From Escherichia coli (GTDB lineage: Bacteria > Pseudomonadota > Gammaproteobacteria > Enterobacterales > Enterobacteriaceae): a stretch of DNA of 64,000 bases. The first letter of the stretch is position 1. Each line of letters starts with the position of its first letter. The translations under genes were made by a program, and so were the position numbers. Location of the stretch: NCBI RefSeq assembly GCF_024700885.2, contig NZ_CP117014.1; one strand, written 5' to 3'. Under the pieces are notes generated by a model. That model was not told where the DNA came from, searched no databases, and saw only the letters and a program-made list of their open reading frames with translations. Positions 43 to 40,331 of this stretch are shown in pieces.

Positions 43-287
43 AGTGTAGTGACTCCTTGCTTTCGGAGCCGCCATCGACTGTTCCACGGTCTGGTGGCGG
101 CGCAATAAAGGCTGGAACACCGTGAGTCAACGGGGGCTTTTCAGCCACCTATATTGCACCGCCATAGGTATGACGGCGGCAATAATACGAAAAACTAAAC
201 AGTTTGTCTCAAAAAGTTGACCGGTGTGCCAATCGGTAGTGAATGTACATCGGAGAAATTTACAATTCAACTTAAAATGTTAGAAAA

Positions 288-866
288 CTAATTTATCGAT
301 TCAATCGCCATCTGATACAACGTCATTTCATCGGCATTGTGCCGTATGAAATCTGCTTTTCCGCCTATTTTTCCATCAGCATGAACAGGGACCAGCCAGG
401 GATATTGTTCTCGGACCTCGGCTGGCGCTGCGTACTGGTGGTGCCATTTACACAAAGGGAGGACATATTTATGCGCGTTCTCTGCCGTTCTCCCGAAGAT
501 ATGGTGCAGGGATACCACTGGGCTATGTTGCCCGTGAATATGGCAGGCAATGCAGGGGAGAGTACCTATAGCGGTCTGTATCCGGCGTTCATCGGCTGTG
601 AGTGATCTGCCTTTCAGGCCGCGTGACGTGCGTGTTTTTTTGGGCGGAGCGGATACAGCTTTATCTTTTCTCCGCTGTTCATATTGCTTTGCTTTTTCAT
701 TTTTCTTTTGCCGATATTCAGGCGATGCGGCCTTTTCTCTCGCTCGCTGCTGCTGGCGTTGAGCTTGTTGAAGGCGCTTTGCCCTTTGTTCCTCTCGCCA
801 GGCCGGGTCAGCCAATTTTTGCATGGCTTTTTGTCTCTGTTTCTCCCAATAACTCTGTTTCTGCAT
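288..866 (-). CDS. ref: Ref-like HNH endonuclease (recombination enhancement function)
   Basis: 192 aa; Cys/His motifs LPCIACHIHG, SLHHIFGRT, PLCKWHH, APAEVREQYPWLVPVHADG match my recollection of P1 Ref. Confidence 0.65.
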   Translation of the reverse strand: MQKQSYWEKQRQKAMQKLADPAWREEQRAKRLQQAQRQQQRAREKAASPEYRQKKNEKAKQYEQRRKDKAVSAPPKKTRTSRGLKGRSLTADERRIQTAIGTLPCIACHIHGQHSPVVSLHHIFGRTAENAHKYVLPLCKWHHQYAAPAEVREQYPWLVPVHADGKIGGKADFIRHNADEMTLYQMAIESIN

Positions 867-936
867 GATGGCAGTCTCTTACTTTTCAACGATTTTTCTA
901 TGATTGATCAAAACGGTTAGATATTCAAAATTGATT

Positions 937-944
937 TTCTAACA
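937..944 (+). promoter_or_regulatory. Operator-like motif TTCTAACA in the ref promoter region
   Basis: Lies within GTTAGA-N-ATTGATTTT-CTAACAC about 70 bp upstream of the ref start; same motif recurs at about 12 other promoters. Confidence 0.45.
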
Positions 945-1138
945 CAAAACATTAATATCATCACTGATAAATGTTTGGAGGACATGATGCTTATAGCTTT
1001 AAGTGCGATCCACCAGCCATCTGTGAATGAGATTGGCCTGTTCTATGTGTTGTTTTTCGGGGCGTTGGCGCTACTTGAGCTTGGTATTGAGCTTTTCGCA
1101 GTGCTTATGTTTTGCGTCACGATTTTGGGGAAATTTTG

Positions 1139-1750
1139 ATGGTGAAACGTGTTTTGAAAATTTACATCGCGGGGCCGATGACTGGTTATCCAGATTACAA
1201 CCGTGCTGCGTTTAATGCGAAAGCGAGCGAGCTGATGGCTGAAGGGCATATCGTTCTGAATCCAGCTGTGTTACCTGGTGGCCTTTGTCAGAGTGAATAC
1301 ATGGATATTTGCCTGGCAATGGTGCGTTCTGCTGATGCGATCTACTTGCTCAATCGATGGGAGGAATCGATTGGTGCTCGTGCAGAGCACGCGCTGGCTG
1401 AAAAGCTGGGGCTGACTGTAATTTATGAGTCACCAACCAACATTGAATGCCAGGTTGCTCCGCATATTTACCGGGAACTGGTCAATGCACTGCGTGATAT
1501 CGCTGCTGTATATCACGGCACAGAACAGCTTCGTGAGCGTTTAGCCCATACCATTTCCTATTACCTGTCTTTATCTCATGAGCACAAGCTCCGCCAGAAG
1601 GTAATGATCAAATTTATCATGAGGTTATCGAAATCCCTGGCAAACGCCGATCCAAAGAATCCATTACCGAAAGAGGCAATGAATTACCTGAAGTCCTGCA
1701 ACGTTGTTTCTGAAGATGGCGTTCTTTTGGTTAGAAGGAGTTCTGCGTGA
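1139..1750 (+). CDS. DUF4406-like (nucleoside 2-deoxyribosyltransferase-fold) protein with a C-terminal module shared with the 8866-10386 protein
   Basis: KIYIAGPMTGYPDYNRAAF...VLNPA motif; C-terminal PHIYRELVNALRDIA..GTEQLRERL recurs as PHVYRELVNRLHDTA..GTQQLRERI. ATG at 1139 chosen over the upstream alternative start at 1112. Confidence 0.5.
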   Translation: MVKRVLKIYIAGPMTGYPDYNRAAFNAKASELMAEGHIVLNPAVLPGGLCQSEYMDICLAMVRSADAIYLLNRWEESIGARAEHALAEKLGLTVIYESPTNIECQVAPHIYRELVNALRDIAAVYHGTEQLRERLAHTISYYLSLSHEHKLRQKVMIKFIMRLSKSLANADPKNPLPKEAMNYLKSCNVVSEDGVLLVRRSSA

Positions 1751-1779
1751 GCTGGCGGGGATGGGGAAGGGCAGAAATC

Positions 1780-2064
1780 ATGATACTCCGCCAGTGCGCC
1801 GGAACTATGACGGTCGAGAGTATTGGGAAGCTGATCGGTCGTACCGGTGATGCCGTCAGGACTAAAGCGCGGGAGTTGGGGATCAGCATGATTCTGAAAG
1901 GAGACTTTCATCCGTCAGCCAAATTCCGGCAGAGCGATATAGAACTGGCGCGGCAGCTTCATCAGTGTGGTGTTCCCCGCCGTGAGATCGCGGAAAAACT
2001 CGAAATGCCCCTGGGCATGATTAATCAGTACGTTTATTTCGAAAGGAGAGTACATGAAGTCTGA
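1780..2064 (+). CDS. Small putative DNA-binding (HTH) protein
   Basis: ORF; segment TVESIGKLIGRTGDAVRTKARELGI is HTH-like. Start taken at the internal ATG with an RBS. Confidence 0.4.
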   Translation: MILRQCAGTMTVESIGKLIGRTGDAVRTKARELGISMILKGDFHPSAKFRQSDIELARQLHQCGVPRREIAEKLEMPLGMINQYVYFERRVHEV

Positions 2065-2557
2065 AGGTTTAACGCCAGCACAACTGGCAGAGCGTAACGC
2101 TGAGTATGTAACGGAAATTTCCCGACTTGAGAAAGCGTGTGCTGCGCTGGCGGCGGAGAATGCGAGACTGAATGCGATATGTGAGGATCGCCGCACGTTC
2201 ATTATGAATGGCGTGCAGCTTGGCTTTATCAAGGTGCCAACAGTGGAAATAGATCCAGCTCTCGAAACAATTCGTCTCGCCCTATCACCACAAAAAACCA
2301 CTCCTGCGACCGACACTTTCCTGGATGAAGTGAAGACTGAAGCACGCAAGGAGGGCGCTTACTTTGTGGCGAACAGGATGCTGGCTGCTTGGGAAGCTGG
2401 TTTTATTGATGATACTGCGAAGAACGCCGCGGATATTGCCCGGATGATTCTTACCTCTACTGAGTTTATGGCTAATGCGCGGGAAGGCGATTTTGACCGC
2501 TCATTCTCTGATGGCGTTCTCGAAGATATCGCCGAACAGCTTAGAAAAGGAAGGTAA
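2054..2557 (+). CDS. Ead/Ea22-like coiled-coil protein (paralog family member)
   Basis: ACAALAAENARL motif and C-terminal similarity to 5775-6488 (FLDEVKTEARKEGAYF / FLAEIRAEARNEGVNY); RBS AAGGAGAG. Confidence 0.5.
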   Translation: MKSEGLTPAQLAERNAEYVTEISRLEKACAALAAENARLNAICEDRRTFIMNGVQLGFIKVPTVEIDPALETIRLALSPQKTTPATDTFLDEVKTEARKEGAYFVANRMLAAWEAGFIDDTAKNAADIARMILTSTEFMANAREGDFDRSFSDGVLEDIAEQLRKGR

Positions 2558-2560
2558 ACA

Positions 2561-2809
2561 GTGAGTAATACCGCACGACTACAGCTTGGTTTTTCACCGC
2601 TATCAAAAACCATCGTGTTGGCAAAAATGCGTGACTTAGGGGATGGAACAAAACGTCGTGTTGGCAATGATCGCGGTCGTGATGTAACCAACGAGGCCGC
2701 TCAACTCCTCTGGCATCTGGTCATGGCAGAAGGCGGTGAAATTAATTGGGAGCTGGATGATGGTTCTCGCATGGTATTGAAGGCAGAAAAGCAGGAACCA
2801 CCACAGTGA
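2561..2809 (+). CDS. Hypothetical small protein
   Basis: ORF with GTG start and RBS, translationally coupled to neighbours. Confidence 0.35.
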   Translation: MSNTARLQLGFSPLSKTIVLAKMRDLGDGTKRRVGNDRGRDVTNEAAQLLWHLVMAEGGEINWELDDGSRMVLKAEKQEPPQ

Positions 2810-3081
2810 ATATCGACACCACGATAACGCTCGATACGGCCCTAAATACCGGTCTGGCACTTCTTGGTTGGCTTTACATCATGTCCCGTACCTGGCGATG
2901 GCTGGGTTCCATTTTCCTAAAAGAGTGGAAAAAACGGCGCAAACAGGAACTACGCCAGAAGGCATTAGAAGCGTTCTATGACGCATTTGAACTTAGCCGC
3001 ATTGAACCAGGCACAACAGCCAGAATAGCGACAAAAGGCGACCTGATGATAGTGATGTTCAGACAGGAGAAAACCAAATGA
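2806..3081 (+). CDS. Hypothetical small membrane protein
   Basis: ORF with hydrophobic stretch LNTGLALLGWLYIM; overlapping start/stop coupling. Confidence 0.35.
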   Translation: MNIDTTITLDTALNTGLALLGWLYIMSRTWRWLGSIFLKEWKKRRKQELRQKALEAFYDAFELSRIEPGTTARIATKGDLMIVMFRQEKTK

Positions 3082-3302
3082 CAGAACAGACGATGACAAA
3101 TCGCGAACTTGTTGATGCCGCGATTGAACTTGCTGGCGATTTTTATTCCATGATGGGGTACACGCATCGCCCAGGCTTCAAATATTGGGAGTCTCCGCAC
3201 CCGCAAGAGCAACGGGTATTTCAAATGGCCTGCCGCGCTTTTGAAGTTATTCGCGGTTCTGATGTGATGGACGCGGTTGCTGATTTGGAGGATGAAGAGT
3301 GA
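3078..3302 (+). CDS. Hypothetical small acidic protein
   Basis: ORF with ATG and RBS AGGAGA; coupled to neighbours. Confidence 0.35.
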   Translation: MTEQTMTNRELVDAAIELAGDFYSMMGYTHRPGFKYWESPHPQEQRVFQMACRAFEVIRGSDVMDAVADLEDEE

Positions 3303-3610
3303 ACACAATTAAAGAAATGCCGGTAGAACGTGATGAATATGGCTGCTGGACACATCCGGAGTATGAGAAGTTTTGCGCAGGTCGTGAATATATTTCCACT
3401 GAGGAATTTGACGCCTGGATGAAGGAAAATAATCTTCAGTGGACTATTCGCAGTATGGATGAAGATGATTTTGATCTGGACGCAGCTGGTCCCGATATTG
3501 CCGCCTGGGAACCGGAGCGACCAGAGGGTGAAGGCTGGTTTGTTGGCTCTATTCATGACACTGAAGATGGTCCGGTTTGTATCTGGCTGCGTGAGAAGGT
3601 TGCCGCATGA
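3299..3610 (+). CDS. Hypothetical small acidic protein
   Basis: ORF with GTG start and RBS GGAGGA. Confidence 0.35.
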   Translation: MNTIKEMPVERDEYGCWTHPEYEKFCAGREYISTEEFDAWMKENNLQWTIRSMDEDDFDLDAAGPDIAAWEPERPEGEGWFVGSIHDTEDGPVCIWLREKVAA

Positions 3611-3767
3611 CCCAGGCTCTGCATGAAGTGAATTTATATAGCCGTATTGATGGTTCTGGCTATAGAAACTAGACACGGGCGCGGTTTTTAGCGGAAATCT
3701 GACGCTAATGCAGGTGAAGGGAGGGCAGCTTAAAGTCTGATCAAATCATTTACGCACTCAAAATCAC

Positions 3768-3796
3768 GTTAGAACATTGATTTTAGTTTTCTAACA
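3768..3796 (+). promoter_or_regulatory. Operator-like inverted repeat GTTAGAA-N14-TTCTAAC overlapping a putative promoter
   Basis: Perfect 7-bp inverted half-sites 45 bp upstream of the 3839 start; contains the recurrent TTCTAACA motif. Confidence 0.45.
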
Positions 3797-3838
3797 TATT
3801 ATTTTACCGATCGGAACAAAACAGAGTCGGTATGCATT

Positions 3839-4834
3839 ATGAGTGCAATAATCACCCCATATGTCGTAAATGAAACTGGTGTGGCTGTCTTTCCTGTAGA
3901 TAAGCCCACCAGCAATTACATCGGCGCAGGACGCCGTTTTCTTATATCCCCATTGCCGCGTGAACAGGCTGAAAACACCCCTGATGGTGTCGTTGACCTG
4001 AATTATTCACTGGTTGCCAACCAGTCACTGGCACCCTTTTTTCAAAGTGAGCGCGTATTTAACGCGTTAGGTGGTGAGGATTCTCTCGTTCACTGGGTTA
4101 GCACCAACATTCACGATTGCCAGGTGCATGATAAGCGCGATTGCAGCCACCAGCTAACCACCCATTTCTATAACGGTTCTGCCGTTCGCCTGTGCTGGAA
4201 GCATGATGCGGAATACATGATGAAGGGATACGGCAAGCTGGAAGACCAACTGTCACTGAATCGCGCCAACTGGATTATGAACTGGGCTGCCAGCGAGTTA
4301 AAACTTCCGCCAGATCGCGATCTGAGCATGGTTGAACTCACCTTTTGGGCCATTCGCCGGAATCTTAAAGACGAACTGCCTGATGAAGCTGGTCGCATTG
4401 CATTTTGTCAGCCAAAAACTGAAATCCCTACCGGCACTCTGAAAGAGTCGGATATTACTTGGGAGCATAGTACCCGCGAGCTGGTGGATATTTCCGCAGA
4501 GCAGATCGTCAATCTGTCCGTCGATGAAGATTCTGGCCTCCTATATATGCGCCGTCCAAAAACCTTACTCGGAAAAAGCCCGGCTTATCTCCGGTTTGTG
4601 GTGTCTCGCCCGTGTGTAGGCTGCGGCGGCAAGGTTAATCACCCATTCATGTACCGCGCCCGCTCGTTAAACGAACACGACCGCTGGACTGTTCCTCTTT
4701 GCGATGACTGCGCCAGAAGCGCAGAAAACGATGTCCGGGCATGGGAAAAAGCACATGGCATACGCCTTTACGTAGCCGCTAACCAGCTTTTCGACTTCGC
4801 CATTGAGCGCGGAGTGATCACGTTCAATAACTGA
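3839..4834 (+). CDS. DUF968-like / HNH-like Cys-His protein
   Basis: 331 aa; C-terminal CVGCGG...HPFMYRARSLNEHDRWTVPLCDDCAR resembles the Ref-type Cys/His cluster. Confidence 0.5.
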   Translation: MSAIITPYVVNETGVAVFPVDKPTSNYIGAGRRFLISPLPREQAENTPDGVVDLNYSLVANQSLAPFFQSERVFNALGGEDSLVHWVSTNIHDCQVHDKRDCSHQLTTHFYNGSAVRLCWKHDAEYMMKGYGKLEDQLSLNRANWIMNWAASELKLPPDRDLSMVELTFWAIRRNLKDELPDEAGRIAFCQPKTEIPTGTLKESDITWEHSTRELVDISAEQIVNLSVDEDSGLLYMRRPKTLLGKSPAYLRFVVSRPCVGCGGKVNHPFMYRARSLNEHDRWTVPLCDDCARSAENDVRAWEKAHGIRLYVAANQLFDFAIERGVITFNN

Positions 4835-4847
4835 TGGGAGCAATGCA

Positions 4848-5141
4848 ATGAGTCAAGGTAATGGTGACGGAGCTGCAAAGTGCAGAATCTCCACTTGTTT
4901 GATTAATGACAAAAAAATAGAACCGTGCGCGGCGTTGGCACAATCTCTGGAGAAGGATGCTGAATACACGACGCGGAAAGGTCTGCTGAAATACAAAATC
5001 TATAACCATGAATTAATTCATTCACAAGACCTGATCATGCTGCGGTCTGGTGAATTTTCTAAATCGCCTATTCGAGTTTCATTTTGCCCATTCTGTGGTG
5101 AAAGTCTGAAAACGTGGGAAGCGGAGGCAACCAGTGAATAA
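4848..5141 (+). CDS. Small Cys-rich protein with C-terminal zinc-ribbon-like CPFCGE
   Basis: ORF with ATG and RBS; CxxC pairs. Confidence 0.35.
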   Translation: MSQGNGDGAAKCRISTCLINDKKIEPCAALAQSLEKDAEYTTRKGLLKYKIYNHELIHSQDLIMLRSGEFSKSPIRVSFCPFCGESLKTWEAEATSE

Positions 5142-5778
5142 CCGCTTTTACATGATGTGCTTGCGTGAAACTGTGGGTAATAACGCCTCATTCCATTGCC
5201 ATAACGGCAATGGTTACAGTTCTGATATCGATCGCGCTCATATTTACACGCTGGAAGAAGCCCAAAAAGCCTGGAATTGTGGGCGAGATATCGATCAGCC
5301 TGTTTGTGCCGATAGTGTGGATGCAATGGCTGTGTGGCACGTTGATTGCCAGTACATCCCTACAGAAAGCCTGATTGAGTCAGATTGCACTGAGTATGTG
5401 GCCTACAAAAAAGGTAGCTGGAACGGCAACGATGTTTACTGGCTTCAACACGGTGGATTGCCAACAGATGACTTCAGTAAAGCGACCATCTTTAGCTTCG
5501 CCAACAAAAACGAACCAGGAATAGTTTGGTTGCCATTTTCCATTGCTGATGCAGCAAAGCGCCGGACGTTCAATATCAATAACTTTAACCGCAGAACAAT
5601 GGTTCAGGGCGCAGGTTTGGTCATGCCTGACTGGTTGAAAGAGCAGAACAGAAGAAAGAAGTCGCGAAGCGGGAAGGTGCGTTGGAATTGTCCGCATTGC
5701 GGAAAAATAACCTGGCAGTACAGCCCATATGATTTTGAAGGCTGTCGTGATTACAACTGTGAAGGATGGCGAGAATGA
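5134..5778 (+). CDS. Hypothetical protein with C-terminal zinc-ribbon-like motif
   Basis: 214-aa ORF; WNCPHCGK...CEGW near the C-terminus; start uncertain (GTG 5134 or ATG 5152). Confidence 0.35.
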   Translation: MNNRFYMMCLRETVGNNASFHCHNGNGYSSDIDRAHIYTLEEAQKAWNCGRDIDQPVCADSVDAMAVWHVDCQYIPTESLIESDCTEYVAYKKGSWNGNDVYWLQHGGLPTDDFSKATIFSFANKNEPGIVWLPFSIADAAKRRTFNINNFNRRTMVQGAGLVMPDWLKEQNRRKKSRSGKVRWNCPHCGKITWQYSPYDFEGCRDYNCEGWRE

Positions 5779-6488
5779 CAATTGACTATCAGGTACTGCG
5801 TGAGGCGGCAGAAAAGGCAACACCAGACGAATGGGTCGCATTTATTTCGACGGATACTGGTACTTATGCGGTGCACACGCCCGGTGATGAACGATGTGAA
5901 GACGTTATCAAATGGACCGGCTTTGATGGACAGAAAAATGCAGAGAACAACGCTCGTTATGTTGCCGCGTTCAACCCAAAGGTTGCACTGGAGCTTCTTG
6001 GTGAAATTAAGCGCCTGGAGGACACAAATATTGATGCTATGTGTCGAATTGCAGAGCTTGAGACTAATCTCGCGGCGCTGGCGGCGGAGAATGAACTGGC
6101 TCGTAAGGCAGTTCAGGCATTCTGCGATGTTGTTGGCGACAACACCGAGGTTATCGCTGAGGAGGTTGGGCGAGATGGCGTTCTGGTTATTTTGGAGGCC
6201 ATGAAGGCAACAGGAAATATGCCAGCCACCGATGCTTTTCTGGCTGAAATTCGTGCGGAAGCACGCAACGAGGGAGTTAACTATACCGCCAGCCGTCTTG
6301 CTGCTGCGTTCAATCACGGATTTATCAATAAGTCTTTGCGTGAAGTTTTCGACGTTACACGCATGATTTTGTCAGCGAAAGAAGAGTTGGCTAATGAAGC
6401 GCATCCGATTGATGGCCTGTCTGGTGAATATGCGGAGAAATCCCTTGAAGAATGGGCGGAACAGATTCGCAAAGGAGCTGACAAGTGA
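5775..6488 (+). CDS. Ead/Ea22-like protein (paralog of 7423-8178 N-terminus and 2054-2557 C-terminus)
   Basis: N-terminal MTIDYQVLREAAEKAT...AAFNPKVALELL matches 7423 ORF (MSKINYQALREAAEKAT...AAFNPKVALALL); LAALAAENE coiled coil. Confidence 0.5.
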   Translation: MTIDYQVLREAAEKATPDEWVAFISTDTGTYAVHTPGDERCEDVIKWTGFDGQKNAENNARYVAAFNPKVALELLGEIKRLEDTNIDAMCRIAELETNLAALAAENELARKAVQAFCDVVGDNTEVIAEEVGRDGVLVILEAMKATGNMPATDAFLAEIRAEARNEGVNYTASRLAAAFNHGFINKSLREVFDVTRMILSAKEELANEAHPIDGLSGEYAEKSLEEWAEQIRKGADK

Positions 6489-17098: not shown

Positions 17099-17106
17099 GT
17101 GTTAGA
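17099..17106 (-). promoter_or_regulatory. Operator-like motif (TGTTAGAA) upstream of the 17041-13420 operon
   Basis: Same motif family as 937-944 and others. Confidence 0.4.
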
Positions 17107-17114
17107 AATTTAAT

Positions 17115-18426: not shown

Positions 18427-18521
18427 TTTTCTAAAATTGATGACAAAAAATCACAGTTCGATCCTTTACTCACTCTGTTATTCGACATAAATTTGTCATA
18501 GTAATTTTATGTTAGAAAACT
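18427..18521 (+). promoter_or_regulatory. Two operator-like motifs upstream of the 18538 gene
   Basis: TTTTCTAAAATTGATGAC at 18427-18444 and TGTTAGAAAACT at 18510-18521. Confidence 0.4.
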
Positions 18522-18537
18522 AAATCGAGTAGGAATA

Positions 18538-19575
18538 ATGAGTAAGAAGTCGATCGAGAAAGAGTACAAACGGTTCCTGCAAACCGCTGAACGGTGGAAA
18601 GAGCTGGTGGTCGCAAACTCTGTTTTCCATGATACCAGTTATGCTGGCGAGGAATTCCGCCATGTTGCATTAACGCATGACCAAAACATATTAGAAGAAG
18701 CTGAAAAATGTCTTGCTGAATGGAAAGCCTTCGTTGACATGTGCCGCGATGCCGACGGCAAAGCGTCGAACATTGTTGAGTCTGTATATTCTCCGATCCC
18801 ATTCATCATTGAGGACACCAATCAAAGCACGCATGTCGTTGTGCAAAGCGCTACAACAACACGTACATTTACACGTGAACAATTGCTAAAAAAATACGAC
18901 AAAATCATAAAGAAAAGCCTTAAAAATAGGGTTTTTTCTCAAATCGTAGGTGATCTTGAAGAAGAACAGCGCTTCTTTGAAGCTGAGCCTGAAGGCGAGA
19001 TCTACCGGGCGCGTAAAGAGGCATATACAGATGTTGTGCTGACAACAAACATCGAAGGCAGCAATGCCCTTTCTCGCTTTAGAGTTGGCGCACATGGTGC
19101 ATTGGTTTTCGCAAGACTACCGAAGACAACGATCCCCGTTGTCAATAATGTTGGTGAACGCCGGAGCATTACAATTTATTCTGGCGTCGAATCGGTACCT
19201 TGCAGCCTTCTCGGCGATTTTAACTTATATCGTGTTCGTGACCTGGAAAAACACCAGCCAAGCTATGTTGCGAAGTCGTACATCTTAAGGAACATCGATA
19301 TTCGCAATGAAAGCCTTAAGCAGAAATCCGCTAAGATGCTGGAGGATGCCGATCCGGCTATTCGCCATATCATTGAGCGTAAGATACGTACATCACGTGA
19401 AGCAATGGCAAGGCTGGATAAAATGGATCTGGAATTGTTAGACGTAATGATGGCCTCTGGAGACGACCTGACCGGCATTAAACTGAATGAAGCTCGTAAA
19501 AAATACGGCAAAGCAATCGAAGAACGTTACGGATACACATTCCCCCAAACGCAGTACGCCGCGAAGCTCTGGTAA
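18538..19575 (+). CDS. Hypothetical 345-aa protein, candidate immunity repressor (C1 position)
   Basis: Lies between pacB and the rox/recombinase, transcribed opposite to pac as c1 is in P1; two operator-like motifs upstream. No sequence match to C1 verified. Confidence 0.35.
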   Translation: MSKKSIEKEYKRFLQTAERWKELVVANSVFHDTSYAGEEFRHVALTHDQNILEEAEKCLAEWKAFVDMCRDADGKASNIVESVYSPIPFIIEDTNQSTHVVVQSATTTRTFTREQLLKKYDKIIKKSLKNRVFSQIVGDLEEEQRFFEAEPEGEIYRARKEAYTDVVLTTNIEGSNALSRFRVGAHGALVFARLPKTTIPVVNNVGERRSITIYSGVESVPCSLLGDFNLYRVRDLEKHQPSYVAKSYILRNIDIRNESLKQKSAKMLEDADPAIRHIIERKIRTSREAMARLDKMDLELLDVMMASGDDLTGIKLNEARKKYGKAIEERYGYTFPQTQYAAKLW

Positions 19576-26270: not shown

Positions 26271-26756
26271 ATGCGGCACTCTCTCCGCCCGTCACCGCTC
26301 TGTCTCGGTTGTCGCGTTTGCCACGCCAGCCGTAACGAGGTTTAAAGTCTTTACACGTTTCCATCACTCGACTGCCGTCTGTGGCTGTTCGTTGCAGCGG
26401 GGGTGCCTCCCCCTGGGGATATCCCCGGCCTTACCCCATTCTTTCAAGACACAATGCAAGGCCACATCCGCATAGGTGCATTACCGCAACATTAAGGAGA
26501 CTCAGGGCAAAAGGTAACCGCCACAAAAATCCCTATGCCTCCTTAATGTTGAAGATGTGCATTGATGATTAGATGCAGCATGTACCGTTACTCTCTGCCG
26601 GACCATCATCAATGAACACCTTAAAAAGACCTTCCGTGGCTCAACATGTATTGTCGTTTACTCCGCAAAGTGCTCTCTCTGAAACCACTTTCCGCACTAA
26701 ACCTGCTGAACTTTGGCCTGCACGGTGCCAAAGCGTGCTCTTGCATTACTATACAT

Positions 26757-26920
26757 TTCTAACACTTTAATTTGTTAAATGCTGGTGGGCGAACAATAAC
26801 CAATAAGTGACTATCAAGCCCAGCAAGCGAAACGTGGGTACCGCCCACCAGCAAGGAAAATTCTATGTTAAGTTATCTTCACAATCAATACATTCGAATT
26901 GTGATTTTAGATTTCTAACA
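26757..26920. promoter_or_regulatory. Two operator-like motifs flanking an 11-bp perfect inverted repeat
   Basis: TTCTAACA at 26757-26764 and 26913-26920; GCTGGTGGGCG ... CGCCCACCAGC between them. Confidence 0.35.
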
Positions 26921-28131: not shown

Positions 28132-28212
28132 TGCTATTCCCGTTACTTTGTTAAATTATTTTTCTAACATATTTTATTAGTTTGATGACAGTATCGAAAG
28201 ATGCAATAAACA

Positions 28213-28755: not shown

Positions 28756-29250
28756 TTAATCAAGACAAACATACTCCGTGATAGCTTTTATGGCTTCAGC
28801 GGCACTGCGCGCCTCAAAGCAGTAGTAACCGGCTTCTGTGAGGCGAGTCATCCAGACGAGTTGTTCGGGAGTCAGGCGATTTCTCCCATGTTTCATCTCA
28901 ATGCGCATTCCGTGGTATCCCCCACAAGCAAGGTCTATAGAAAGATCGGGATATCCCTTCTTTTGGCCCTCTGCCACCATTTTTATTGCCGTCCTTATGC
29001 CTCGCAGGCCACCGTTTGGAGTGGCGTGAGTATGCTCATACACATAACGCATATTGCGATACATCCAGTCCAGGACGCGAACCTGCTCGTAATGCTCATG
29101 GTTCCTTTTGATTAGATCTGGGTTTTTCTCCAGTTCTCTAAGAGCTGCGGCATGTGGGGATGTTTCAGAATATTCACTGCGACGCCTTCTCTTTCGCGCT
29201 ATTTTTCTAACACACCCATTGATAGTAAATATGCGAAATAATAACAACAA
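28756..29250 (-). CDS. VRR-NUC domain nuclease (PD-(D/E)xK fold); true start probably internal
   Basis: GYPDLSIDLACGGYHGMRIEMKHG...LTPEQLVWMTRLTEAG fits the VRR-NUC pattern; operator-like motif at 29205-29212 lies inside the longest ORF, so the real start is likely Met63/Met67 (about 29064). Confidence 0.55.
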   Translation of the reverse strand: MLLLFRIFTINGCVRKIARKRRRRSEYSETSPHAAALRELEKNPDLIKRNHEHYEQVRVLDWMYRNMRYVYEHTHATPNGGLRGIRTAIKMVAEGQKKGYPDLSIDLACGGYHGMRIEMKHGRNRLTPEQLVWMTRLTEAGYYCFEARSAAEAIKAITEYVCLD

Positions 29251-38755: not shown

Positions 38756-39168
38756 AGTTACGGCCTCACTAACAGGTTTAACAACCTGCCACCCGCTGTC
38801 AAACAGGTGGCAGGACGTGACAGGGTTGACAGACTGGCGTTAGTGAAACCAGCAGGCCGAAGCCTCCCCATCACGCCCCACCATAATTCGGGCGTAACGC
38901 GGTTTACGGACACAAAAATACCGCAATATCGGAAATCTGCGGTTGTCCGCACTAACATTCAGGCTGTCAAACCCGGTCGCAGAATTTGCTACGACGGCAT
39001 GAATATAAGCCTGAAAACATGGAAGATCAACTAAAAATTTCAGCAATGGATGACTTCAGTCGATGATGCAGATCATACATTCCGTTTTAGAAACAGCAAA
39101 TTAATTTTCTAACATAAATAATCGGCCGAGCATTTTCCGATCATTGGGATGTTTTGTAGACACACAGG

Positions 39169-40131
39169 TCATCCCCTAAATCCCGCAGGGATTGACCAAT
39201 CCTCACGGTCAAATTCAGACCGATAGCCACGCTGTTTCATCAGGTCAAAGGCTTCACCAATGGTTGCACACCCCTGGGAGCCAGAATAATCCATTGAGAA
39301 ATCTAGGGCACTGGATTGTTTAGGCTTATTCACTGCGGTAGCGGCACTACGTATCCATGCAAATTTTTTTGCCAGCTTTTCAGCGGTACGATACAGAGCC
39401 TGCCGTTTTGCGTGCCCCTCGTCTGAACGACGCTTTGCAGCTCTCGCTTTTGCCGCCGCCAGGCAGTGGTTGGTATGTTCTTCCCTGATTACTGGTTTTT
39501 TATCCAGTACCCCGTTATCCGTTTGAGAACTATCTGCAGGTGAAGCCTTTGGCTGAACCGCGCATGATCTTTCTCTTCTTTTGGCTATAGAGTGACTCTT
39601 ATTTTCTATTGGCTGTTCATTTTGAACATGGGGGGACTTGTTCAATTTGAACAGGGGGTTCCCAGTTTCAAAAAAATAACGAACCTTTGAAATCAACTGC
39701 TTAACCAGTTTTGTGGCGTTGGCAAATTTGATGCCCTGCTTACCCCCTATCTCCATTGCTACATGAATGAAGTGGAGAAATTGTGTCGTAAACCGATATA
39801 CGTTACACACCTGGGCATTGTTATTCGCTACCTGATGTTGCTTAACAAGCATTCCGCACTTCGTCGCTTCAGCAAATGCCCGGCGCACAGTAGAAATACT
39901 GCGTCCTGTAATCTCGGACATATCAGCATATGAGCGACGGATCATGTATTCATCGGTAGACCCTGCCAGGTTGGCGAACTCGGCAATAATGGCGCTATGT
40001 GAAGGGGAAAGAAGACCGCTATGACGAGCAAAAAAACTCAACTGATGACCTTTGATTTTTTTGTGGTATTCAGTGTTGTTTTTATACTCAGAAGTGTTGA
40101 AAGTTACTGAAACTGAATTTAAAATACTCAC
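39169..40131 (-). CDS. Putative replication initiator (RepL-like) with internal palindromic repeats
   Basis: HTH-like MSEITGRSISTVRRAFAEATKCGML; two tandem palindromes inside the coding sequence; operator-like motif upstream. Confidence 0.4.
   Translation of the reverse strand: MSILNSVSVTFNTSEYKNNTEYHKKIKGHQLSFFARHSGLLSPSHSAIIAEFANLAGSTDEYMIRRSYADMSEITGRSISTVRRAFAEATKCGMLVKQHQVANNNAQVCNVYRFTTQFLHFIHVAMEIGGKQGIKFANATKLVKQLISKVRYFFETGNPLFKLNKSPHVQNEQPIENKSHSIAKRRERSCAVQPKASPADSSQTDNGVLDKKPVIREEHTNHCLAAAKARAAKRRSDEGHAKRQALYRTAEKLAKKFAWIRSAATAVNKPKQSSALDFSMDYSGSQGCATIGEAFDLMKQRGYRSEFDREDWSIPAGFRG
39614..39657. repeat. Two tandem palindromic sites TGTTCA-N3-TGAACA inside the RepL-like gene (candidate internal origin)
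   Basis: TGTTCATTTTGAACATGGGGGG and TGTTCAATTTGAACAGGGGG about 24 bp apart. Confidence 0.4.
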
Positions 40132-40304: not shown

Positions 40305-40312
40305 TGTTAGAA
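40305..40312 (-). promoter_or_regulatory. Operator-like motif upstream of the RepL-like operon
   Basis: TGTTAGAA about 175 bp upstream of the 40131 start. Confidence 0.35.
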
Positions 40313-40331
40313 ATTTAACTTAACAAGGCGA

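Follow-up and report, generated by a model that had tools for sequence, protein, structure and literature searches.

An orthodox Ref endonuclease and a distantly related, probably non-catalytic PdcB-like zinc-finger protein behind C1-type operators in a D6-like plasmid prophage

Does a P1-type prophage of Escherichia coli carry, beside Ref, a second nuclease of the Ref kind? The question is raised by a 64,000-nucleotide stretch of contig NZ_CP117014.1 (assembly GCF_024700885.2), here called the window, which contains a leftward ref gene and a rightward gene for a PdcB-like protein with a DUF968 domain. In the initial annotation, both proteins were described as ending in Cys/His clusters of the same style and as repressor-controlled by motif, and the second was proposed to be a Ref-like nuclease that modulates recombination or acts on foreign DNA. 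Few nucleases are targeted by RecA filaments; Ref is one of them, with a role in vivo that has yet to be clarified, and a co-regulated homologue encoded by the same phage would naturally be suspected of being its partner. We favor, at a probability of about 60%, a reading in which the window encodes an orthodox Ref and a PdcB-like zinc-finger protein without HNH cleavage, both repressed by a C1-type repressor in the lysogen and induced together. The features discussed are collected in Table 1.

The first 7 kb of the window have 95% identity to phage D6 (NC_050154, 75.7 to 82.1 kb) and 99.6% identity to the E. coli plasmid pB2C_96, matches which identify the window, as judged from sequence, as a D6-like plasmid prophage of the P1 type. 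In the D6 annotation, the counterpart of ref is a "Ref-like RecA filament endonuclease, similar to P1 ref", and that of the pdcB-like gene (orf98) is an "HNH endonuclease, similar to P1 pdcB".

The ref reading frame carries the cluster first described for it, with LPLCKWHHQ at residues 137-144 (nucleotides 438-458). Its product is assigned to the Ref family by Pfam (PF16786, RecA_dep_nuc; E 2.6e-34, 117.9 bits against a cutoff of 26.9), by PHROGs (phrog_2321, "Ref-like RecA filament endonuclease"; E 6.6e-82), and by the solved structure of P1 Ref, PDB 3PLW (E 1.8e-50, residues 28-190 aligned), and it is 98% identical to a RefSeq "Ref family recombination enhancement nuclease"; NCBIfam gave no match for this protein or for the PdcB-like one. 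In an alignment of 31 Ref homologues, all conserved Cys and His residues are present in the core (C105, C108, H121, H122, H132, C139, H142, H143, and H162, within LPCIACHIHG...SLHHIFGRT...LPLCKWHHQ...VPVHADG), and C105, C108, C139, H142, H121, H122, H143, and H162 are invariant or nearly so. We infer that C105, C108, C139, and H142 are the zinc ligands, and H162 is by alignment the equivalent of the P1 active-site residue H153 (PMC4330346). Residues 1-85 contain 27 Lys or Arg against 9 Asp or Glu; the P1 Ref N terminus is a disordered, DNA-binding stretch of 76 residues with 25 positive and 9 negative charges (PMC4330346), and the basic N-terminal region matches it in composition as its putative counterpart. 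From these features the gene product is an orthodox Ref, with a predicted basic, disordered DNA-binding tail and an HNH core retaining all conserved Cys and His, and we see nothing in its sequence to make us doubt a functional Ref. Family, domain layout, and conserved Cys/His are thus those of P1 Ref, although by eye the tail is much less conserved than the core.

The second reading frame likewise has the Cys cluster reported for it (VPLCDDCARS, with PLCDDCAR at residues 286-293, nucleotides 4694-4717), within a C-terminal sequence that contains RPCVGCGGKVNHPFMYRARSLNEHDRWTVPLCDDCARSAEND. It matches PF06147 (DUF968) over residues 161-325 and profile positions 1-171 of 171 (E 4.1e-45, 154.3 bits against a cutoff of 27.8) and phrog_96, "HNH endonuclease" (E 4.9e-104). 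Identity is 94.6% to D6 orf98 and, over the full length, 37.8% to P1 PdcB and ~26% to YdfU-type proteins of lambdoid, Vibrio, and Klebsiella phages, relatives that are annotated beside a Holliday-junction resolvase or antiterminator Q (see also PMC5714182). These matches place the protein in the YdfU/DUF968 family, as the D6 counterpart of P1 PdcB. P1 pdcB itself is listed as "function unknown", and a pdcB::kan phage is viable (PMC10067587). With P1 PdcB, D6 orf98, and YdfU of the E. coli Qin prophage, the window protein shares full-length homology, a three-part architecture, and a C-terminal zinc-knuckle His-Me finger. Its setting differs from both kinds of relative, as the YdfU-type gene of lambdoid phages lies next to rusA and Q, and P1 pdcB follows phd-doc-pdcA, whereas the window gene comes after a ppp remnant, behind an operator of its own. 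The RefSeq coding sequence of this gene on pB2C_96 is 954 nucleotides, 42 shorter, with a start near window position 3881 by estimated mapping; the ATG at 3839 is favored by the conserved family N terminus, M-x-A-I-I-T-P.

Are the two C-terminal clusters related? Pairwise BLASTP of Ref against the PdcB-like protein gives an E value of 0.24, which is not significant alone, and sets PCIAC...LPLC of Ref against PCVGC...VPLC in register. Profiles were compared by hhalign, built from homologue alignments of 35 YdfU/PdcB and 31 Ref proteins. Whole alignments matched at 95.9% probability (E 5.6e-9, 75 columns) and the C-terminal domains only at 96.9% (E 1.5e-10), significant scores which place the similarity beyond chance. 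With only the eight PdcB-clade sequences, the signal against Ref falls to 69% (E 4.5e-5), and the homology of this clade to the canonical YdfU finger is unambiguous (99.5%, E 6e-23). Ref is the best structural match, and nearest solved structure, for the YdfU/PdcB C-terminal finger, followed by the IscB HNH domain, YbcO (3G27), ScoMcrA, and Cap5, all of which are His-Me fingers; a PDB search with the PdcB-like sequence alone found only a chance-level match (E 1.1). We read the two clusters as distant homologues, the same His-Me/HNH module of zinc knuckle and beta-beta-alpha fold. The likeness claimed in the initial annotation thus withstood the alignment of the two C-terminal domains that it had proposed as a check, which found clear similarity and not its absence. 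The link is not new: DUF968, with DUF1364/YbcO, has been placed in group 7 of the His-Me fingers and Ref in groups 26/31 (Jablonska et al. 2017, PMC5714182), and both genes and their superfamily relationship are already known and annotated. Ref (E 1.9e-15) and the PdcB-like protein (E 0.012) also both match phrog_1588, a PHROGs family of unknown function that may be an intermediate joining Ref and YdfU-type fingers.

Homology of the fold does not extend to the residues expected to cut. The family finger consensus, QPC-x2-CG-x3-DDPHH-IGHG-GGMG-KAHDLF-PLCR-x-[CH]-H-x-ELH, is a textbook zinc-knuckle HNH, with the canonical YdfU motif C-x2-C ... D-P-H-H ... A-H-D ... P-L-C-x2-[CH]-H-x3-H. The PdcB-like finger has the zinc knuckle followed by the beta-beta-alpha fold and keeps C259, C262, C288, and C291 together with H280-D281, as do D6 orf98, P1 PdcB, and the homologues P0116 and P0117. 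These four cysteines lie opposite C105, C108, C139, and H142 of Ref in hhalign and are predicted zinc ligands. The four catalytic or metal-binding His positions, in contrast, are occupied by F270 and M271 (HH to FM), A292 (H to A), and E296 (H to E), opposite H121, H122, H143, and H162 of Ref; none of the five proteins has a His at any of the four, as against ~50 canonical relatives. The end of strand 1, where a near-invariant catalytic His would be expected, carries F270/M271, and the P1/D6 PdcB clade conserves no His at this point; the clade has also lost the GGMG loop. The gene for P0117 is followed by an Lpa homologue, as is pdcB in P1, and therefore this degenerate PdcB clade appears to be specific to P1-like elements.

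The PdcB-like protein also lacks what sets Ref apart within the superfamily. PF16786 gave no match, PF06147 being the only family found at a maximum E value of 1; the Ref finger-loop insertion is missing, with an hhalign gap opposite Ref AAPAEVREQYPWLVPV; and in place of a basic, disordered N terminus, the first 160 residues form a folded domain (predicted local distance difference test score [pLDDT] of 91). With the histidines, the protein fails all four Ref-specific features examined (profile, histidines, finger loop, and basic tail), and "Ref-like" in the family sense is therefore not apt. The proposal of a second Ref-like nuclease accordingly fared less well than the likeness on which it was built: Ref-type nuclease activity is unlikely because of F270/M271, A292, and E296, the missing tail and finger loop, and membership in another family, YdfU/PdcB.

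Only the C-terminal cluster had been listed in the initial annotation, and a Cys/His cluster in the N-terminal half was missed. Residues 94-130 read C94-QVHDKRD-C102-SHQLTTHFYNGSAVRL-C119-WK-H122-D, with strands at 106-111 and 114-119, a helix at 120-129, and the elements C94, C102, and C119-W-K-H122-D123. Across the family the consensus is CQ-x6-8-[CH]-x3-LT-x8-RLCWHHDN, in which C94, C119, W120, and D123 are at least 90% conserved, and both predicted models fold the N-terminal residues as a zinc knuckle, a beta-hairpin, and a helix. No His is conserved in the first strand of this module. A sequence-level internal duplication of the finger is not supported, as the N-terminal module, compared by hhalign with the Ref core and with the C-terminal finger, scored probabilities of 1-2%; a Pfam scan of 45 N-domains found no relevant family, and a PDB search with the N-domain profile found nothing. 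As modeled, the N-terminal cluster is probably a second, non-catalytic, His-Me-like zinc module. A tandem-finger architecture for the YdfU family is possibly a modest addition at the level of annotation; YbcO (DUF1364; PDB 3G27) and lambda NinG/Rap differ in being single-module proteins, and NinG/Rap also in that structure-specific nuclease action has been demonstrated for it, PdcB having no known activity.

Are the two genes under common control? The pattern GTTAGA-N16-TCTAAC occurs in the window only at the two inverted pairs, 916-943 and 3768-3795, with 0.02 occurrences expected, and each arm belongs to a 17-bp motif approximating AAATTAnTTTTCTAACA. In phage D6 (L001, 8008-8035), the pair that precedes the pdcB-like gene is unchanged. 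The operator core, TTTCTAACA, is found in 11 copies against 0.77 expected. One copy (18510-18518) lies ~20 bp upstream of the c1-like gene, and others are at 17100-17108, 26756-26764, 26912-26920, 28161-28169, 29204-29212, 39106-39114, and 40305-40313; the last is upstream of a replication-initiator-like reading frame (39169-40131, minus strand), which is flanked by two copies, and one of the copies listed is just upstream of a pmgS-like gene. The product of the c1-like gene, presumed to bind the motif, belongs to phrog_1678, listed as of unknown function, and its D6 counterpart orf1, also 345 residues, is annotated as "similar to P1 gene C1". The C4 match and the half-site between it and ref look like the P1 immI arrangement (Op51-c4-icd-ant) directly downstream of ref.

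The P1 C1 regulon covers ref, immI, the lytic replicon, and c1, and P1 ref lies behind the operators Op2a/b. The distribution of the window motif mirrors this regulon: as with the dispersed, asymmetric 17-bp operators of P1 C1, the motif is asymmetric, dispersed, over-represented, and arranged as inverted pairs at some promoters, with copies upstream of ref, c1, the C4 immunity RNA, and the replication-initiator-like reading frame, and the window ref, like that of P1, stands behind a C1-type operator pair. The systems differ in that the window ref is directly upstream of the C4/icd/ant immunity region, the P1 operator consensus, ATTGCTCTAATAAATTT, is not the sequence found in the window, and the D6-type C1 is only ~21% identical to P1 C1. 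At the level of motifs, then, the suggestion of repressor control is borne out, as inverted pairs lie upstream of ref and the pdcB-like gene only, and co-repression of both genes by a C1-like repressor is well supported by motif. Both would most likely be silent in the lysogen under this repressor and switched on together at induction, since each lies behind an inverted pair of a motif that also precedes c1, the C4 RNA, and the replication-initiator-like reading frame. The rightward orf88/DUF4406 operon may be a further target of the 916-943 pair, or even its main one. This pair overlaps candidate promoters picked by eye, TTGATT-16-TAATAT rightward and TTGAAT-17-AATCAT leftward, and the 3768-3795 pair overlaps TTGATT (3777-3782)-17-TATTTT (3800-3805); these hexamers are weak, hand-picked 4/6 matches.

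With Ref orthodox and the operators common to both genes, the alternatives differ in what they make of the PdcB-like protein. We hold it to be probably a conserved, non-catalytic zinc-finger protein, which would no longer cut DNA by the HNH mechanism and would act in early phage DNA metabolism as a zinc-stabilized factor binding DNA (probably DNA structures) or protein. Several observations weigh against this view and its regulatory part. A literature search found no biochemical test of any YdfU/PdcB protein, and the loss of activity is read only from the residues; in some His-Me fingers the canonical histidines give way to Tyr, Asp, Asn, or Glu (PMC5714182), and H268, H280, D281, D289, D290, E296, and D298 lie near the lost site; a Foldseek search of the PDB with the full model returned nothing significant, the best matches being EcoKMcrA (E 0.18) and then the Cap5 HNH; repressor binding is deduced from motif distribution only, and a strict sigma-70 promoter scan called none at either operator pair. 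The same substitutions feed the main rival, which we regard as unlikely but a serious competitor, that the protein has kept nuclease activity through a non-canonical site, formed by acidic residues and H268/H280 of the C-terminal finger or by the N-terminal C-W-H-H-D-N element, and that it processes intermediates of recombination or replication, the role proposed for YdfU proteins and lambda NinG/Rap. In its favor, the protein retains its fold and its gene is strongly conserved, H280-D281 is invariant across the family beside the acidic cluster D289, D290, E296, and D298, W120, H122, and D123 persist in the N-terminal module, substituted His-Me fingers exist (PMC5714182), and PHROGs and RefSeq apply the label "HNH endonuclease". 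This is countered by the simultaneous replacement of all four canonical-motif histidines with deletion of the GGMG loop, by the absence, in both modules, of a His that the PdcB clade conserves where strand 1 ends, and by the weakening of the N-terminal motif in the window and D6 proteins (CWKHDA against CWHHDN).

The other readings fare much worse. That the protein is a second RecA-dependent nuclease of the Ref type, as first proposed, draws on Ref being its best structural match, on the homologous profiles, and on the common operator architecture, but is made very improbable by the failed PF16786 match, by a folded N-domain in place of the disordered tail, and by the absent finger loop and the non-His residues opposite all four Ref histidines. 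A chance or convergent resemblance of two unrelated CxxC...PLC zinc knuckles, to which the BLASTP value and the Foldseek result could be fitted, is the least credible of all, given profile scores beyond chance. Nor is a decaying, functionless pseudo-nuclease more than a slim prospect, although catalytic residues are lost, P1 pdcB::kan is viable (PMC10067587), and the neighboring ppp is deleted in the window: against D6, the ratio of nonsynonymous to synonymous divergence (dN/dS) is 0.059 overall and 0.10 in the C-terminal domain at a synonymous divergence (dS) of 0.49, the full-length frame has been kept between P1 and D6 (38% identity), and the operator/promoter region that belongs to the gene is conserved as well. 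Purifying selection on the gene is strong, and a decaying pseudogene was rejected on this ratio (0.06).

What the non-catalytic reading adds to current annotation is that the catalytic histidines are lost in the P1/D6 PdcB clade despite purifying selection, and that the N-terminal domain of the family looks like a second HNH-like zinc module. As the histidines are lost, the "HNH endonuclease" labels in databases probably overstate the activity of the PdcB clade. Both points are useful for annotation and for experiments on P1 pdcB and open no major question. A bolder extension, which we consider speculative and quite improbable, is that the clade is a conserved "dead" double His-Me finger with two tandem zinc beta-beta-alpha modules, neither of which has a catalytic His, and that a YdfU-type recombination nuclease was repurposed in it to bind branched DNA or RecA-DNA intermediates without cutting them. 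If that were true, PdcB co-induced with Ref could steer or restrain Ref or host nucleases at D-loops, or compete with them there, and the whole YdfU family would have an unrecognized tandem-finger architecture, with an N-terminal domain that is in no Pfam family.

Table 1. Coordinates of the features discussed, in window positions, with their basis
Feature	Position	Strand	Basis or remark
C4-like antisense RNA	90..169	-	Rfam RF01695, 40.2 bits, E 2.8e-5, below the gathering score of 45
Single operator half-site AAATTAGTTTTCTAACA	271..287	-	Directly after the ref stop, upstream of the C4-like antisense RNA
ref, Ref-family RecA-dependent HNH endonuclease	288..866	-	192 aa; PF16786, phrog_2321, PDB 3PLW, and RefSeq matches
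Ref HNH core	297..599	-	Residues 90-190; alignment to 3PLW and 31 Ref homologues
Ref N-terminal basic, low-complexity region	600..866	-	About residues 1-89; charge count
Inverted pair of C1-type operator half-sites	916..943	.	Pattern search and half-site alignment; between ref (leftward) and the orf88/DUF4406 operon (rightward)
ppp (metallophosphoesterase) remnant, 21 codons	3607..3672	+	Alignment with the D6 orf96/ppp junction and ppp 3' end; D6 annotation
Second inverted operator pair	3768..3795	.	Pattern search; 44 bp upstream of the pdcB-like start
pdcB-like gene, YdfU/PdcB-family DUF968	3839..4834	+	331 aa; PF06147, phrog_96, D6 orf98, P1 PdcB
N-terminal zinc-knuckle beta-beta-alpha module (predicted)	4118..4228	+	Residues 94-130
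C-terminal His-Me finger homologous to Ref core	4580..4738	+	Residues 248-300
c1-like prophage repressor gene	18538..19575	+	345 aa; tblastn with P1 C1, E 9e-7

In D6, and likewise in a 99.5%-identical plasmid, the gene before pdcB is ppp; in the window an internal deletion of ~0.6 kb has cut it to the remnant. Relative to D6, the pdcB-like gene (dS 0.49) has ~12-fold the synonymous divergence of ref (dS 0.04), a contrast which suggests mosaic exchange within the early region.

Just downstream of the pdcB-like gene, the plus-strand reading frames 4848-5141 and 5134-5778 lie in a region matching P7 upf87.4/upf87.6, and both also end in CxxC clusters (...CPFCGESL... and ...CPHCGK...GCRDYNCEGW). 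Two further plus-strand reading frames, 2054-2557 and 5766-6488, have a similar C-terminal segment (ATDTFLDEVKTEARKEGAYF... and ATDAFLAEIRAEARNEGVNY...) and look like paralogous modules repeated within the early operon; in the pB2C_96 annotation, the counterpart of 5766-6488 is ead/Ea22-like and that of 2054-2557 is hypothetical.

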